64,000 nucleotides of DNA. Origin: Octopus vulgaris. Lineage: Eukaryota. This document shows, piece by piece, positions 2,791 to 32,619 of the stretch. The position numbers were made by a program, and so were the translations under genes. The notes below the pieces were generated by a model. The model did no database searches. It saw nothing but the letters and a program-made list of their open reading frames with translations, and had not been told where the DNA came from. How positions within the stretch are numbered: the stretch's first letter is position 1; each line of letters starts with the position of its first letter. The stretch covers positions 3,410,001-3,474,000 of the forward strand of contig OX597832.1 of NCBI GenBank assembly GCA_951406725.2, written 5' to 3'.

Positions 2791-3903
2791 GGCCTCTTCT
2801 ACACTAGTAAAAAGAGTTCACTAGTTAATGCTAAAACATTTGACAAATAAAGTGTGTGTGTGTGTGTGTGTGTGATAGGGCAGGTGGCCTGGCGGTAGGT
2901 ACAGGAACAGCATTTCAGTGACCTGCTGTTTGTTTTAAAGAAGAAAAAATTGGAAATATCGTTTAGTTTTGGATTTATAAAATGGCACACTGTAATGGGG
3001 TGGGGGAAGTGCTAAGGAACATGCATCAATGGGTTTCATCCATGCCCATTTCTCTTCCTGCATAGGAACAATGTCTTTACCAGTGGACATTTTGTGTTCA
3101 GCATTTATCTACATTTAAACAAGAAATGGAATATATTAGTAAAATTCAATGGAAATAATTCAATAATATATTTCATTTCTTGATATGTAAGATACAGAGT
3201 TATCACTGAAAAATCATGAAAATGAAGAAAAATGAAGTGATGAAGAGTCAATGTTTTCACAGAGAACCCCATTCACCACAAAACAAAAGAAAAAAATCTA
3301 AAATTAATTGATTGTGTTAATAAGACATACAACAGTATAACTTTCCACTGTATATAGTAATATTTAATAACAGTATCAAGAATAAATTAAGCAAAATCAT
3401 TCTGTAAATTCTAAAAGCAAAAGAAAAATTGATGTTAAACTATTAATATTTGAAAAGTAAAACTGAATTATTGAGTAAATATATAAAACTAATATACTGA
3501 ACTCTGGACAAGTTCAAAACTTGTACTAAAATTTAGTCTTTCTCATTGTCTCTCATTATTTATATTTCATGTAAATATACAAAAGTATGTTTTGATCAAC
3601 TCTAACCACTGTTTAGTTATCTGTAGTGTATTTTAGAGAAACAAAACAATTTTATAATTCTGCAATAGAAATAAGACAAAAAAAATATGTCTTAGAAGTT
3701 TGCCTCAAAACTACTTTTTTCCATGTTTAGTTTCTCTTTGTTACACCTTGAGCAATGACCTTTTATTGTTGTATTAGGTTTACCAAAATGCAAGTAAAAT
3801 GACAGGCATTAAAAAGTTAGGATTTGAAAAATTTGGAATAAGCTGCAAGTTTTTTTCTTTTAAATATATATATATCTATACATTTTTTTTGTTTTTTTTG
3901 CAG

Positions 3904-4500: not shown

Positions 4501-6561
4501 ATGTGCTTATAAAATTGAGTGAAGAATCAAAGTTGAAATTCGAAGGAAATTCAAAATTTTAAAATGAGTGAAAACAAAAATAAATATAGATAATGGCAAT
4601 GACACAAGAATACAAAAATAGAGAAACTAACATGTAAAATTCTCAGAATCGTTAAGCTGGACTGAAAATAAGTTATTTTGTTATATAGAAATGTTATAAA
4701 CAAACTAGTAACTGAAGTATAAAAATACAAGAATGTCTTAGAATGAGAGAATGTAGGAATCTAGAACAGTCTATACCCTGTTATCTCATTAAGAAGAAAT
4801 AGACAAAATAAGGTAACTCAAGAATATATGTCACTATACATTATGTTAAGAGTCTACTTGAGAATATTAATTTGGCTTTTAAAAAATATTGTATCTGAAA
4901 AGAGCATACAAATGGATAAAAATTGTAAAGGTCTGGAGATTGAAGATTCCTATCTAAATCAAAGTTAACCTATTAAAAAGTTCATTTCTTTTCTGCAGAA
5001 ATCAGAGTTGGATCTCGTCCAAAATCCTTCATCTACATACTGACAGTTTCTAGATCAAACAGCTTTTTATTCTGCTCAACTTCTAACTGTCTGTTTTCTA
5101 AAACAGCAATGAAATAAAATAGGCTGATATCAGCTATTGCATTAATATACTGCAACAGTTCAAACCTGAAACTTAAGAAAAATATATGGATTTTGTAATC
5201 ACTTCATTACAAACTGATAAATTTATCGTTGGATGATTACATAATATTGTGTAACACAATTTTTCCTTGCATAGTAACTGCTATTTCCTATTTGTTTACC
5301 TCAAGAAAGTCTGAAAAATGGTTAATATTTTCTTCACACTTTGCTTTTGTTACATTTATTCAAACCCCAAAGCATTCCTTTCAACATTCCCTACTCCTGC
5401 TCATAATCAGAGATGCTCGTATTGTCAGTCACGAAGTGACATGCTCAAGTAGTTAAGATGAAACAACTTACAAGCAAATCTGTAGTAGTGAGTAGAATAT
5501 TTGCTATAATGATATTTCTGCTTCAGCAACTTGGCACTGAATCTGTCTGAAATGTAATGGAAAAGAGGTCAGTTTCAAAACATTGATGTCCAGATCACAA
5601 AAGCAAAATTTGAAGGGAATAGTAGCCTTTTCTTTTGGTTTCTAGATAGAAGCAAACAGGAATAATACTTACTGACCAAAGATAAAAAATAAAAAATATT
5701 AAAATTTTGTTGCATTGTGTGATTCATACCATTATAAATATCTATGGACAATGAATAGTGATTTCTTATTTAGACACACAACCATTACTTTGTAGAGAAA
5801 GAGTATATTTGGTTGAAACCATTTCAGAAAACTTCTGCATGATCGTTCAATCTTCTAGATATATAAAAATCACCCTCAAATCACACTCCACCATCTTAAA
5901 AACAATATAGCCCTAGAACAGTCATTGGCAAACTGCAGCCTGTGGGACTTTCTGAATGGCACACCAATGAAAAATTACCTTGAATTTTTTTAGAAGTGTG
6001 GTCCACCTAATGATGAGCCATGTCTCATGTGGTCCAAACGTATGTGCATTGTGTGTGTTTCTCTCTCTGTATGTAAGATTAGCAGGTTTCATTTGGTTGA
6101 CCTTTTGGTTGCCTGTATTCATCAGGAAATGAATAAGAAATGACAGGTGATAGGCGAATGGTTTAAAATCAACAAATGACTACAACCAGTCAAAAAAAAG
6201 CTGACTGAGCAGCATGAATTATATTTGGCCATAATTGCCTATTTTACCACTTTGGTTCCTAGCTAACTTTCAAAGGACTAGATTGTTATCCATTTGAAAT
6301 AGCCTGTGCTTAACATGATTTTGTTATTTCCAGAAAAAGGTGATTGAATTCAGAGAATATTGGAATATAAGAAAAAAAAAAAACAATAATTGATTGATCA
6401 TTAGACAAGGACTGATGGAAGAACAATTGTGAGATTTAAATTGAGGGTATAGTAATTGATAGAGGGTATAGTAATTGATAGAGAGCATACAATCTAAAAG
6501 AATAAAAATTTCCATTCTATGTGTATGAGAACGATGGCTAGAAGTATATTGAGTTCTTCAT

Positions 6562-6731
6562 AACCAGCTGATCTAGCAAGCGGGGCCTCATATCAGTGAG
6601 GGGGGCCGATGCGCATTGATGCCGTCGAGAGGTAGGCCCCAAAACGGCGCGCATTCTCTCCTGATGACCCCATACACTTGCTAGCTTCCGATATACGGAG
6701 CTTTTAACTGGTAGCACTTGCATGTGCAAGT
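6562..6731. ncRNA. Candidate structured RNA or element of unknown family (GC/CpG-rich, nested stems, potential pseudoknots)
   Basis: Six to seven nested complementary blocks plus loop-to-internal-loop complementarities. 10 CpGs in 6581-6697 against an AT-rich, CpG-poor background. No family recognised. Confidence 0.5.
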
Positions 6732-7493
6732 TGTTTGCAAGATATCTAAGAAAATGTCACCAGACAAACTTTTTTTTTATTTGGTGCAGTGAAATGGTAA
6801 ATTAATGATATGAATTTTCAAAGTAAAATGATACTCATGTACCTCTAAAGTGAAATGAGAACTGAGAATCAAAACAGGTTGCAGAAAACTTAACTGCAAT
6901 ACTTTTACATTGTAAGTAAATGGGAGACCTTATACATAAGAAACAAATGTGAAACATGCAGTAATAACAATAATAATTATAATAATAATAATAATTATAA
7001 TAATAAAAGCTTTAAACTCTACTGTCATACTTTGAGAATATGAAAGACAGCAAATACTTTCTGTGTTCTGGATTCTTATGTCTAATTTGTATTTAACCTG
7101 ATAGAAGAATGCTGTCATTTCCCTGTTTTACAGACCATCTACTAGAGTAGTATTCAGCATGCAATATCAGATAACTTCCTTTCTGTTGCATCTAGAATTT
7201 GGGTGTGTTGTATTTCTGTTGAGTGTGTTTCTCTCTGTGTATGTGGGGAGAGCAAAGGAGCCAGAGTTTTTTGACATCTTTAGCATTCCACTTCCTCCAA
7301 CTAAGATTCAAAGCTTAAGTATAACAAACTTACTCATATCAGTTACACAGACGTTTTTTTTTTTTTACCTGTTGAAAATTACTGACTGAGAAAGATAGTT
7401 TGATGAATCGTTTCGGATGCAGACAGACAAATGATAAAATAGTGGGAAATTGTGTCTATCTCTTCACACACATATGCACATGTATATTTACAT

Positions 7494-7575
<82 letters not shown>

Positions 7576-7707
7576 TCATGCACGTGTATACAAGTAAGTC
7601 TTAGAGTTAGCTGCTTAGAGGAACATGGCTGAACTACCCTGAATAAAGAACTCAAAGTATTAGGGTTGATTATCAACATGTTTTATTGAATCAGCAGGTC
7701 CAATAAA

Positions 7708-7760
<53 letters not shown>

Positions 7761-7789
7761 GAGAGAGAGAGAGAGAGAGTTATTGAGTA

Positions 7790-8660
7790 ACCATAAAAAG
7801 AAGTGCCACTGCAAGACCTTATGGTTCTCTCCCCACTTCTCCCTAAACATCCAGACATGCATAGGTAAGATTTTTCTTAGGTTGGTTGATAAGCTTTTCA
7901 TGTGATCACACAAATATAGAAAGATCTTTAACAGACATAATTTAAGAATCAGTGTTGAGAAAAAATTACTTAGCACTCCTAAGCCATGGACAGAGGCAGG
8001 TTGTTCATGCAGGATTAGAAATGAATGCCCAGTGGATGCCTGATGTAACACTGAGGCAACAGTGTACCTAGCAAAGGTGGCCTCAAACAGAAACATTACA
8101 AATATCAGTAACATCAATGCCAATACTGGGACATACACTAAAATTTATGTTGGATCTTGTGAATCAAAATTTAAAATTCGCCTGAACAACCACAGATGTT
8201 CTTTCGGGGTCCTGGAGAGATGTAACACAACAAAAATCACAGCATATGTATGGTGCCTAAAGAACGATCATACACCCTTTAACATCAGGTGGAAATTACT
8301 GGAAACTTGTGGACCCTACCACAATGGAACAAGGTTGTGTAAAATGTGTATGGCAGAAAGATATATTATCCTCATGCACTCACATGAGCCACAAGGCTAC
8401 TTAAACACAAGAATGAAAGCTGTGGCGAGTTGTACACATTTTCGGAAATTTTTACTTCGAAATTGGAAAACCTAGCTATCAAGTGATGGATGACAACTCG
8501 CCTGGCCATGACTTTTTAAGAGGAATGTTTCTTGAAATATCAATGGCGCTCTTATGTTTAAAAACAAACATTCTTTGCTGACAACAGTTATTGTTTAGAG
8601 AAACCGAAGAGATGTCTAGTTCATGCTAGATAGGAAACCAATGGTTTTTTTCTAAACTAT
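7790..8660 (+). mobile_element. Penelope-like element 3' fragment: linker, Cys-rich region, GIY-YIG endonuclease, terminal repeat
   Basis: LWFSPHFS...IGKIFLRLVDK...HKYRKIFNRHNLRIS, CSCRIRNECPV, then ORF 8062-8475 VYLAKV...KIYVGSCESKFKIRLNNHRCSF...FNIRWKLL...CKMCMAERYII...YLNTR...CTHFRKFLL. Upstream part has stops. Confidence 0.88.
8593..8657 (+). ncRNA. Type I hammerhead ribozyme motif with U4C core change, downstream of the Penelope endonuclease ORF
   Basis: 11-bp stem I (gtttagagaaa/tttttctaaac), CCGAAGA in place of CUGAAGA, stem II tgtctag/ctagata, GAAA, near-palindromic stem III accaatggt, GUU cleavage triplet. Confidence 0.75.
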
Positions 8661-14895: not shown

Positions 14896-15042
14896 TCACA
14901 CACACACACACACACACACACGTATATATATATAGAGAGACAAAACAAAGAATATATATTTGAATGTTTTATGTGTGCATGTGTATGCATGCATACATGT
15001 ATACATTTGTATATATGTATACATGAGTATGCAAATGAATGT

Positions 15043-15074
<32 letters not shown>

Positions 15075-15592
15075 TCATATATATATATACATATATATAC
15101 ATATATATATATTTATATATGTATATATATATATTCATATGTATATATATTTATATATGTATATATATATATATTCATATGTATATATATGTATATATGC
15201 ATATATATATATATGTATATATGCATATATATATTCATATGTATATATATGTATATATGCATATATATATATGTATATATGCATATATATATTCATATGT
15301 ATATGTATTTATATATATATATGCATATATATATTCATATGTATATGTATTTATATATATATATGCATATATATATTTATATGTATATATATATATTCAT
15401 ATGTATATATATGTATATATGCATATATGTATATATATGTATATATGCATATATATATATATATGTATATATGCATATATATATTCATATGTATATGTAT
15501 TTATATATATATATGCATATATATATTCATATGTATATGTATTTATATATCTATGTATTTATATATATATAAATATGTATGTATATATATAT
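14896..15592. repeat. Cryptic (TA)/(TATG)/(TGCA) microsatellite with recurring ~40-60-bp higher-order units
   Basis: Recurrent atattcatatgtatatatatgtatatatgcatat units; source of the YIYI pseudo-ORFs. Confidence 0.95.
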
Positions 15593-16945
15593 GTTGGCTC
15601 TCTCATTGATGAAAATGGCACTCTTCAAGACAATGCCAAAACCATGAGAGAGATGCTGCAGAAACAATACTGCTCTGTTTTCAGCAATCCTGATATGGCT
15701 GATCTGGACTCTATCAATGATGTTACTCCCCAATACACCTTATCGGATATAACCTTTGGCGCCCTAATGTCTTAGCAGCAATAAAGGAATTCAAGCATAA
15801 TTCAGCAGTAGGTCCCGATAGGTTCCCTGCTTGTGTCTTGAAGATGTGTCAACACCAACTTGCCCCCACTGTAGCCAATCTATGGCGGAACTCACTGGAT
15901 GTTGCATTTATACCAGAAAACCTTCTATCCCAGTCTGTTGTCCCAGTTTTCAAGAAAGGAAACAAATCCCTTGCCATGAATTATTGTCCAATCTCACTCA
16001 CCTCTCGTATCATTAAGGTATTTGAGAGAGTGGTGAGATTGCGAATGACTCACTTTCTTGAGAGTCATAATATGCTGAACTCCAACCAACATGGATTCCG
16101 TAATAGAAGGGATTGCCTGACACAGCTACTGCATCATTTTGATGACATTTTGAGAGCTTTGGGAGAGGGTTCCAACACTGATGCTATCTACCTTGATTTC
16201 AGCAAGGCCTTTGACAGGGTTGATCATAAGATCCTTTTGAGAAAGCTGTTCAATATTGGTGTCACTGGAAAGCTGCTGTAGTGGATCAAGTGCTTCCTGT
16301 CAAACAGGACCCAACATGTTGTAATTGAAGGAATCAAGTCCAGCCCAGCCAAAGTCAGTAGTGGTATCCCACAAGGCACTGTGTTGGGCCCACTTCTCTT
16401 CATTATCTATATTAATGACATTACTGATATCATCAAACACAGTAACATCAGAATCTTTGCTGATGATTCCAAGCTCCAGAAGGTCATCAATGGCATGGAT
16501 GACCGGATAAGCCTTCAGTCAGACCTACTGGCTGTTGTCCAATGGGCAGAAAAGAACAACATGTTGCTAAATGAAAACAAATTCGAATTGATCCACTTTG
16601 GAAGAGAGGACACTCTGAAACTCCCATACTCCCTTCCTTCTGGTGAAATTCTCATGGCATCTAACAACATCAGAGACTTGGGAGTAACTGTGGACAACAA
16701 CATAAGCTGGGCTACACATATAAGCAGCAAAGTTGACATGGCCCACAGAATGTGTTCCTGGATTCTCAGAATCTTCCAGTCAGGAGATTCCCACACCATT
16801 ATCCTTCTCTTCTCCACTTTTGCCTGACCCCACCTTGAATACTGCTGTCCACTGAGGTCTCCCTACATGAAACAAAACATTATGAAAATGGAAGCTCCCC
16901 AAAGGTCAATCATGAAACAGATTGATGGCATGTCAGACCTCAACA
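15593..16945 (+). mobile_element. CR1-group LINE reverse transcriptase region, frameshifted and truncated at both ends
   Basis: GPD..PA, VVPVFKKG, NYCPISLTS, QHGFR, IYLDFSKAFDRVDH, SGIPQGTVLGPLLFIIYIND, IFADDSKL, RDLGV; stop codons at ~16279 and ~16825. Confidence 0.95.
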
Positions 16946-21581: not shown

Positions 21582-21716
21582 GGTAATTTTGGCTTGCGAG
21601 GTTTGCAAGGACCACCTGGTCTCCCAGGATTCCCTGGCAATGATGGCCCTGTTGGAAATCAAGGAGTTTTTGGTGATGAAGGTGACAAAGGAGCAACAGG
21701 TCCAAAGGGACATAGA
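21582..21716 (+). CDS. COL4A1: Type IV collagen exon, 15 Gly-X-Y triplets: GNFGLRGLQGPPGLPGFPGNDGPVGNQGVFGDEGDKGATGPKGHR
   Basis: tttctttttAG acceptor (21580-21581), GTAAGT donor at 21717, 135 nt, phase 0, uninterrupted Gly every third codon, in frame with the upstream exon. Confidence 0.93.
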
Positions 21717-32047: not shown

Positions 32048-32092
32048 GGAGACCAGGGTTTGCCAGGCATGCGAGGGCTTCCTGGAATTCCG
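32048..32092 (+). CDS. COL4A1: Type IV collagen exon, 5 Gly-X-Y triplets: GDQGLPGMRGLPGIP
   Basis: tttctttctttacAG acceptor, GTGAGT donor at 32093, 45 nt, phase 0. Too short for the ORF track; found by reading. Confidence 0.92.
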
Positions 32093-32619
32093 GTGAGTAA
32101 ATGTTCATTAATTATTCCTCATTTGTACCAAATTCTTTCAGTAACATTCTCTTTTTTTTTAGTTTAAGATCATTTCATGCTTTTAAATAAAATAATTTAA
32201 GACCATATCTTCAAATTCTTTAAAAAATTACTTTATCAGTCAAAGTTTTGAATGTAAATTATCTCATTCAACAAAGAAATTATTCTACTAATAAATATAA
32301 TAGGATATCCTAGACTATGTAAAAAACCAAAAAAGTCAATCAGCTGAAATGTTAATCTAAAGTTGTTCAATGGTCGGACTTCTTATGACTCTAAAATATG
32401 CGCTTCAGTTTTTATTTCTAATTTATTTCTGTTACAAAACTTGGCAAACCATTATGAATTATTTTTATACCAATTGATTTTAAAGGATTGTGATCACAAA
32501 TAAGAAGTCTAAATTTATGCATGGTGTTGAATATTTCATAATCCATAAATCTATAGCTGTTATTTCTTGCTCCTTTTATTGTTATTGCTTTTGAAAAGTA
32601 AAAGGTCAGAAAACATAAG

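Follow-up and report, generated by a model that had tools for sequence, protein, structure and literature searches.

What is the compact, GC-rich patch at positions 6562-6731 of this octopus DNA? The window (the whole stretch analysed, 64,000 nucleotides of Octopus vulgaris contig OX597832.1) had received a first-pass annotation, in which the patch appeared as an orphan CpG-rich island in a collagen IV intron: a structured RNA with nested complementary blocks, a possible double pseudoknot and no credible ORF, probably antisense to the collagen gene. The elementary observations were reproduced. Seventeen of 18 checked motifs lie where they had been placed, and GGCCCC begins at 6635, inside the terminal loop as claimed; ten CpG dinucleotides fall within 6580-6700, the patch has 55% GC in AT-rich surroundings, and a single copy was found in the window. 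Two Gly-X-Y exons (21582-21716 and 32048-32096) were the only collagen-like exons found, both downstream on the + strand; the placement of the patch in a collagen IV intron is unconfirmed. Elsewhere in the window, positions 14900-15600 hold a long AT microsatellite with a GC content of 12-14%.

The patch is not an orphan. A search of genome G000 returned 2181 candidate copies, of which 40 were scored and are 98-100% identical, and the 12-mer CTCTCCTGATGA occurs 1916 times, versus 85 for a control 12-mer. Across 30 loci, the 3' end of this family (family A) is fixed at GAYATC plus zero to six further letters; the 5' ends vary, lying 217 to over 1709 bp upstream of it. Long copies have a 3737-bp period (a 3.74-kb unit) and a single open frame of 1112-1175 codons. 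The view that there is no credible ORF does not hold, since 6529-6552 are the last seven codons and the stop of this frame. The frame encodes a C2H2-type finger, a reverse transcriptase (RT; PF00078, E 7e-19), a CCHC-type knuckle, and a restriction-like endonuclease (RLE). The finger and nuclease motifs were read by eye; the C-terminal CCHC knuckle and the PD..D/E-type endonuclease were recognized in the translation and aligned across relatives, and no nuclease model was matched in a Pfam search of the protein. A Helitron 3' hairpin, another candidate, was dropped after the RT-RLE ORF appeared.

The best solved relatives of the family A protein are R2 proteins (E 5e-18). There are 197 homologues at E<=1e-30, and the named ones among the 120 listed come from fish and lancelet. 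In a protein atlas, the RT cluster containing the family A protein carries no name. Most of the close protein homologues lie on contigs of 2.4-4.9 kb, about one unit, as collapsed or circularly assembled repeats would. By eye, family A has the RT words VQKAG.PG.PGC.EH, WLDLANAYG, GCTIS, PVKSLGR, and LPGK.K.WCLQ in common with HERO-1_BF and HEROTn, as these are printed in the accessible supplement of PMC7650587. It also has a fixed 3' end, 5' truncation, and mostly non-specific targets, which are the defining traits of HERO in the available text of PMC4640811. Among molluscs, HERO is mainly found in cephalopods (PMC10294476), and HERO families have been recently active according to an octopus annotation (PMC13282606). 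Target-site duplications are rare in family A (2 of 23 copies). The element itself is almost certain; HERO is a tentative label for it, drawn from the RT words compared by eye and from general knowledge of the clade.

Positions 6529-6750 (+) hold the last ~220 bp of one 5'-truncated family A copy. It differs from the long copy L003 at four positions (6531, 6557, 6609, and 6641); two of the changes in the window copy are of the CpG type, one of them in the core of the fold. The features on this copy are as follows.

6529..6750, +: 5'-truncated family A copy, HERO-like RLE non-LTR retrotransposon (unit positions 3521-3740)
6529..6552, +: end of the single ORF of the element, last seven codons (ERWLEVY) and TGA stop (6550-6552)
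6553..6746, +: 3' UTR, up to the usual insertion end of family A, GAYATC (comparison of ends across loci)
6563-6567 with 6708-6712, +: P1, enclosing P2 (folding and motif check)
6573-6580 with 6677-6684, +: outer helix P2 (folding and motif check)
6582-6585 with 6668-6671, +: P3 clamp, directly after CUGAUGA (paired sequence changes between lineages)
6586..6601, +: hairpin H, between P3 and stem II (lineage comparison)
6602-6607 with 6635-6640, +: stem II equivalent; first pair G6602-C6640 in the place of G10.1-C11.1
6610-6614 with 6649-6653, +: P4, in the place of the type-SGC stem I-II interaction helix
6621-6625 with 6644-6648, +: stem III; U6625 corresponds to U16.1 and C6626 to N17
between 6626 and 6627, +: predicted cut, after GUC (position in the hammerhead layout)
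6627-6631 with 6656-6660, +: stem I, followed by a 3-nt linker (6632-6634) to stem II
6641..6644, +: GAAA block, AAAA in the window copy (G12 to A at a CpG; family comparison)
6661..6667, +: CUGAUGA block (CUGANGA; lineage comparison)
6716..6731, +: terminal hairpin, ending 15 nt short of the insertion end (folding and comparison of ends)

The terminal hairpin is a candidate protein-binding or start signal. Because of the change from GAAA to AAAA at 6641, the ribozyme core of the window copy is probably inactive, and we read this copy as a dead-on-arrival fragment with a core mutation.

By eye, the patch had not been matched to a hammerhead. In the family, however, the GUC, GAAA, and CUGAUGA blocks of a hammerhead are present in a non-canonical order; this order, together with AAAA here in place of the GAAA found in 46 of 50 family copies, explains why they were missed. 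We compared five lineages, four of which come from one genome (G000): family A; L069, a metagenome relative (57% identity to family A over 415 residues); and families B, C, and D, found in G000 by a search with a distant protein. The metagenome scan gave three loci, only L069 with its 3' UTR. Identity to family A in the nuclease tail is 32% for B, 30% for C, and 40% for D, and the four other lineages span 30-54%. In all five, the cut site, GAAA, and CUGANGA follow one another in the same order; each lineage has the CUGANGA, GAAA, and NUH core of a hammerhead, from which the window copy itself departs at G12. From 5' to 3', the layout of intact copies is P3, hairpin H, a stem II strand, P4, a stem III strand, UC, stem I, and a 3-nt linker, and then the partner of stem II, GAAA, the partners of stem III, P4, and stem I, CUGAUGA, and the partner of P3.

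The compensatory changes sought in homologues were found in relatives belonging to the four other lineages, and both pairings of the proposed double pseudoknot (ggcccc/ggggcc and gagag/ctctc) are kept with altered sequence. Between family A and L069, stem III changes from GCCG/CGGC to GCUG/CAGC and stem II from GGGGCC/GGCCCC to GGGCUC/GAGCCC, with pairing retained; stem II is GGCCCC/GGGGCC in D and GACCC/GGGUC in C, and its first pair is G-C in all five lineages. P3 is GGGG/CCCC in A, UGGAGA/UCUCCA in L069, 10 bp long in B, and AAGACA/UGUCUU in D; it is weaker in C (48 of 64 pairs). Stems I and III adjoin the core with covariation, as judged by comparing the stem sequences. At the DNA level, family A and L069 are 82% identical over the 86-nt core, versus 59% over the last 600 coding bases and 57% downstream.

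The positions expected to be fixed or free in a hammerhead behave in this way. In a hammerhead, N7 and N17 can vary within certain rules. U16.1 is kept in 50/50 copies of A, 27/27 of B, 16/16 of C, and 24/24 of D, and the commonest N17 is C in A, A in B, U in C, and A in D, never G. The N in CUGANGA is U in A, L069, and D, A in B, and C or U in C. This variation fits the hammerhead rules; the core itself is drawn in the available text of PMC10085705. Among ungapped copies (gapped ones were left out of these counts), CUGAUGA is found in 47/50 A and 23/24 D, CUGAAGA in 20/27 B, and CUGAYGA in 13/16 C, and GAAA in 46/50 A, 19/24 D, 19/27 B, and 7/16 C. The commonest loss of GAAA is a change from G to A at a CpG. 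Family C is decayed, as seen in its GAAA count and in P4 (68 of 96 pairs). Pairing counts are low in D (P3 91/144, H 83/120, stem II 113/144), which we attribute to G-run indels that move the fixed register. In family C (L182-L191, L195, and L197), the end of the ORF, with its final codons and stop, shares sequence with the P3 and H strands; in family D (L125 and the L193-L208 group), ~330 nt of extra repetitive 3' UTR lie between the stop and the ribozyme.

A descriptor of the motif was written after A, L069, and B had been seen and was relaxed after D, so that it is built from these sequences. In its first form, it gave 68 matches in 1.36 Mb, 67 of them in UTRs of these families. With P4 required, it gave 70 matches in 1,979,908 bases, all on the sense strand of A, L069, B, and D UTRs; the chosen B and C representatives were unmatched, and no C copy was matched. 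Shuffled sequences gave 0 matches in 4000 each for A, L069, and D. Viral contigs gave no match to two RNA patterns or in one protein scan, and prokaryote contigs gave five pattern matches, about the number expected by chance and none with the stems. The fold of the 3' UTR is very probably hammerhead-derived, and we think it likely that this core truly cleaves. The two labels offered for the patch, a ribozyme-like RNA and a retroelement UTR structure, would then hold at once, as a LINE 3' UTR with a hammerhead core.

Folding without pseudoknots was less informative. The minus strand of the patch folds better than its shuffles (z -2.94) and the + strand does not (z -1.02), whereas in L069 the order is reversed (+ z -1.55, - z -0.64). 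Since the strand order is opposite in family A and L069, pseudoknot-free folding neither supports the fold nor picks a strand; indeed, the best pseudoknot-free fold of the + strand is without stems I and II as drawn here. The atcag/ctgat stem would bury CUGAUGA, and the reading we prefer for it is an alternative "off" fold; loop sequence matching it is present in A, L069, and B and absent from C and D. An Rfam search of window positions 5500-8000 (to E<=5) and of positions 4500-5500 of L037 gave no ribozyme match, only microsatellite-driven miRNA matches below the gathering score.

The order of blocks points to a known class. Eckert et al. 2023 (PMC10085705) described type-SGC hammerheads, which have the order site-GAAA-CUGANGA, are non-circularly permuted, and cleave; according to the available text, they typically have a 3-nt linker between stems I and II and a helix that connects these stems on their other sides, sometimes abutting stem III without a spacer. 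The UTRs examined here have the S-G-C order, two core pseudoknots, a I-II linker of ~3 nt, and an interaction helix able to abut stem III. They differ in stem II. In a type-SGC ribozyme, stem II follows CUGANGA directly (10.1 with 11.1), whereas in all five lineages the nucleotide after CUGANGA (C or U) cannot pair with the C before GAAA (C.C or U.C), and C11.1 pairs instead with the G that opens an upstream strand; P3 and hairpin H close the gap. Block C is uninterrupted in type SGC and interrupted here. The motif would thus work like a type-SGC ribozyme yet stand outside the type. As a model, it is most simply described as an SGC ribozyme whose ends have been joined and whose chain is opened anew between A9 and G10.1, where P3 and H are predicted to make the base of stem II a four-way junction (with a 3-nt spacer in C).

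This opening has a cost. In the available text, Eckert et al. assume that block C cannot be interrupted (PMC10085705), and core insertions reported in the accessible part of Perreault et al. (PMC3088659) are of only 1-2 nt; with block C interrupted, the core may therefore be slow or dead. Type-SGC ribozymes have been shown to cleave, whereas cleavage by the LINE core is a prediction. The type-SGC motif was found near hairpin ribozymes on contigs from metatranscriptomes; in the main text of PMC10085705, retrotransposons are named in a reference only, and two words of the LINE motif are absent from its supplement. In the literature searched, the term "type-SGC" was found in Eckert et al. 2023 alone.

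Copies that reach the 5' UTR carry a second signal, which was assessed in families A and D. For family A, 30 loci were compared (from 40 scored of 73 candidates): in 24, the sequence upstream of the 5' UTR crosses a single junction and continues as the element's own 3' end, one has ~6 letters of this end, and five are cut inside the 5' UTR. For family D (30 loci, from 40 scored of 54 candidates), 25 cross one junction into their own 3' end, one has 17 letters, and four are cut inside the UTR. In A, 23 of the 24 composites have different flanks and represent independent events; in D, where seven of the 25 have a common flank, there are 19. Each family has a single templated junction sequence, seen in all 24 A loci and nearly all D loci apart from old copies that differ by point changes or small deletions, and the redundancy is present in both old (84% identical) and young (99%) copies. 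Among seven loci of B and C, no full-length copies were found.

The upstream 3' pieces are 27 to about 1980 bp long in family A. They pass through the predicted cut in 18/24 A and 23/25 D composites, and a whole upstream ribozyme is present in 16/24 and 23/25, respectively; none of the 24 or 25 starts at the cut, and most copies extend beyond it, at most by about 1.8 kb. No discrete 5' end was seen among the 30 A and 30 D loci. The fixed junction and the pieces crossing the cut indicate a template that is continuous across both. Among 904 exact matches genome-wide, a single one has its start at the predicted cut (without the natural two letters before it), using a pattern that detects about three in eight such starts; there is thus no trace of cut, unligated templates. 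Four sequencing runs proved to consist of contigs, with no molecule ends. A contig of one of these runs, whose RNA origin is a guess, also crosses the 3'-to-5' junction, but the genome holds this junction too, so the contig is no evidence for an RNA circle. No convincing target-site duplications were found in 12 composites; given their rarity, insertion of the composites in a single event is not proven.

Several composites have features of their own. L046, L048, and L067 are independent, and their starts, no more than one base apart, fall at the terminal hairpin's tip (unit positions 3713-3714), a possible RT stop. L048, L050, L052, L056, L058, L059, L062, L068, L254, and L257 are internally deleted, keep the 5' and 3' UTRs, and are mostly redundant; they are possible non-autonomous, retrozyme-like derivatives. 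The 5' UTR contains hairpins with the loop GGAAAGAC, five in a row in A (L037:4920-5050, +) and one in D (L219), possibly a signal for translation or protein binding; their place on a circle would be just behind the cDNA start. L036 (G000:C11:84626000-84635999) holds inverted family A pieces in a 2.6-kb inverted duplication that includes flank. The composite copy L032 lies inside another LINE, presumably R4/Dong-like by its motifs, with long open frames on both sides.

We lean toward the reading that the 3' UTR of this HERO-type LINE carries an SGC-order core, with a predicted cut after GUC, that likely enables a circular RNA template; for the circular template itself, we see the balance tilting slightly in favor. 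A circular template would account for the fixed junction, the lack of a discrete 5' end, and the redundancy in old and young copies, and a ribozyme in the repeated end would be the means of making the circle, as was proposed for Penelope (PMC4209133, available text), there followed by more-than-unit reverse transcription. A genomic copy consisting of a 3' piece with ribozyme followed by a whole unit with ribozyme would be transcribed, perhaps by read-through. Cleavage by both ribozymes would free a 3.74-kb unit; its ends, a 5'-OH and a cyclic phosphate, would be held together by P2, P3, P4, and stems II and III and joined by the ribozyme or an RtcB-type ligase; circularization by RtcB has been shown for retrozyme RNAs (PMC7229834, available text). 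An "off" fold or bound protein would stop re-cutting. The RT-RLE protein would then nick DNA, and cDNA synthesis would begin some 120 nt 3' of the cut site. Most cDNAs would stop early, as in the window copy, while a few per cent would pass once round and on, rebuilding two ribozymes.

Other explanations account for part of these data. The fold may be a hammerhead-derived but catalytically silent handle for the RT-RLE protein, comparable to the pseudoknot in the R2 3' UTR, with the redundancy arising when the RT reaches the 5' end of a linear RNA and jumps to a 3' end. R2 is capable of template jumping; however, RT template jumps leave ragged joints, and the junction here is one templated sequence per family. 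The split of stem II in all lineages and the lack of a pile-up of starts at the predicted cut both speak for a silent handle, as does the binding of pseudoknotted RNA by R2Tg (PMC12222951, available text), whereas the core letters stay constant across lineages that differ in N7, N17, and the stems. We consider this explanation unlikely. Uncut multimeric transcripts from tandem arrays could also serve as templates, with no circle and a ribozyme that is weak or otherwise used (in translation or RNA turnover). With such templates, no ligation would be needed for copies to have one fixed junction and to be continuous across the cut; but no locus with two whole units was among those examined, the redundancy should shrink each generation and yet is found in both 84% and 99% copies, and it occurs in two families that are only 40% identical in the nuclease tail. 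Such templates seem quite improbable to us.

If the upstream ribozyme instead trimmed host read-through to a linear RNA 5' end, with the downstream copy off, it would act as the HDV-like ribozyme does in R2, a precedent described in the available text of PMC13580325, and the composites that retain a whole upstream ribozyme would be expected. Copies should then begin at the cut, though, which none of the A or D composites does, and most extend past it; this reading is already disfavored, and its chances are slight. The chance that the patch is, as first suggested, a non-coding RNA of the host that lies antisense to the collagen gene is vanishingly small. The better folding of the family A minus strand speaks for it, but this bias is reversed in L069. 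The sense of the element and the conserved hammerhead words are on the + strand, the same strand as the collagen-like exons, and the minus-strand reading was rejected on these words and the reversal; about two thousand dispersed copies have the ORF end attached, and the window copy has CpG-type changes, one in the core. As the origin of the sequence, an antisense host RNA is refuted.

Returning to a ribozyme-made circle, the element resembles HERO in its single ORF with RT and restriction-like endonuclease, its dispersed insertion, and its 5' truncation. No ribozyme, terminal redundancy, or circular template for HERO was found in the literature searched, and the accessible text of PMC13580325, PMC4640811, PMC7650587, and bioRxiv 10.64898/2026.07.22.740005 has nothing on a HERO ribozyme or circle; subscription papers, Repbase reports, and bioRxiv supplements may bear on this. 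With R2, it shares protein relatedness, a structured 3' UTR, and a ribozyme-processed transcript (predicted here). However, R2 is 28S-specific and uses a linear template whose 5' end carries the ribozyme (PMC13580325, available text), whereas this element is dispersed and its ribozyme is part of the 3' UTR, with about 120 nt left to the insertion end. Penelope elements (PMC4209133) and non-LTR retrozymes (PMC7229834), as far as the available texts describe them, likewise have a hammerhead in the repeated end, head-to-tail more-than-unit copies, and a proposed circle. Family A shows such copies with the ribozyme in the repeat, but theirs are type I hammerheads, and they have a telomerase-like RT with a GIY-YIG nuclease or no protein; the element described here is an R2-group RT-RLE LINE with a permuted core. 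It is probable that we are dealing with a known kind of ribozyme in new wiring and a new replication route for a LINE clade.

For the HERO clade as a whole, the case that it replicates through a closed, protein-coding RNA circle by means of a seventh hammerhead wiring (SGC opened at A9/G10.1 through a four-way junction) stands in even balance. If true, hammerhead topology would extend beyond the six orders of blocks that Eckert et al. list, and non-circularly permuted hammerheads, so far from metatranscriptome contigs, would be present in thousands of animal-genome copies. A true LINE would solve the 5'-end problem in the way proposed for Penelope elements, and the model of a circle followed by more-than-unit reverse transcription would become testable with one intact, young, autonomous element. 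HERO consensus sequences would be circularly permutable, perhaps with arbitrary ends. An autonomous R2-group LINE would carry out target-primed reverse transcription from inside a circular template and rebuild its own ends by travelling round it more than once. R2-group proteins are under development for RNA-templated gene insertion, and one that starts inside a circular RNA would represent a different insertion mechanism.
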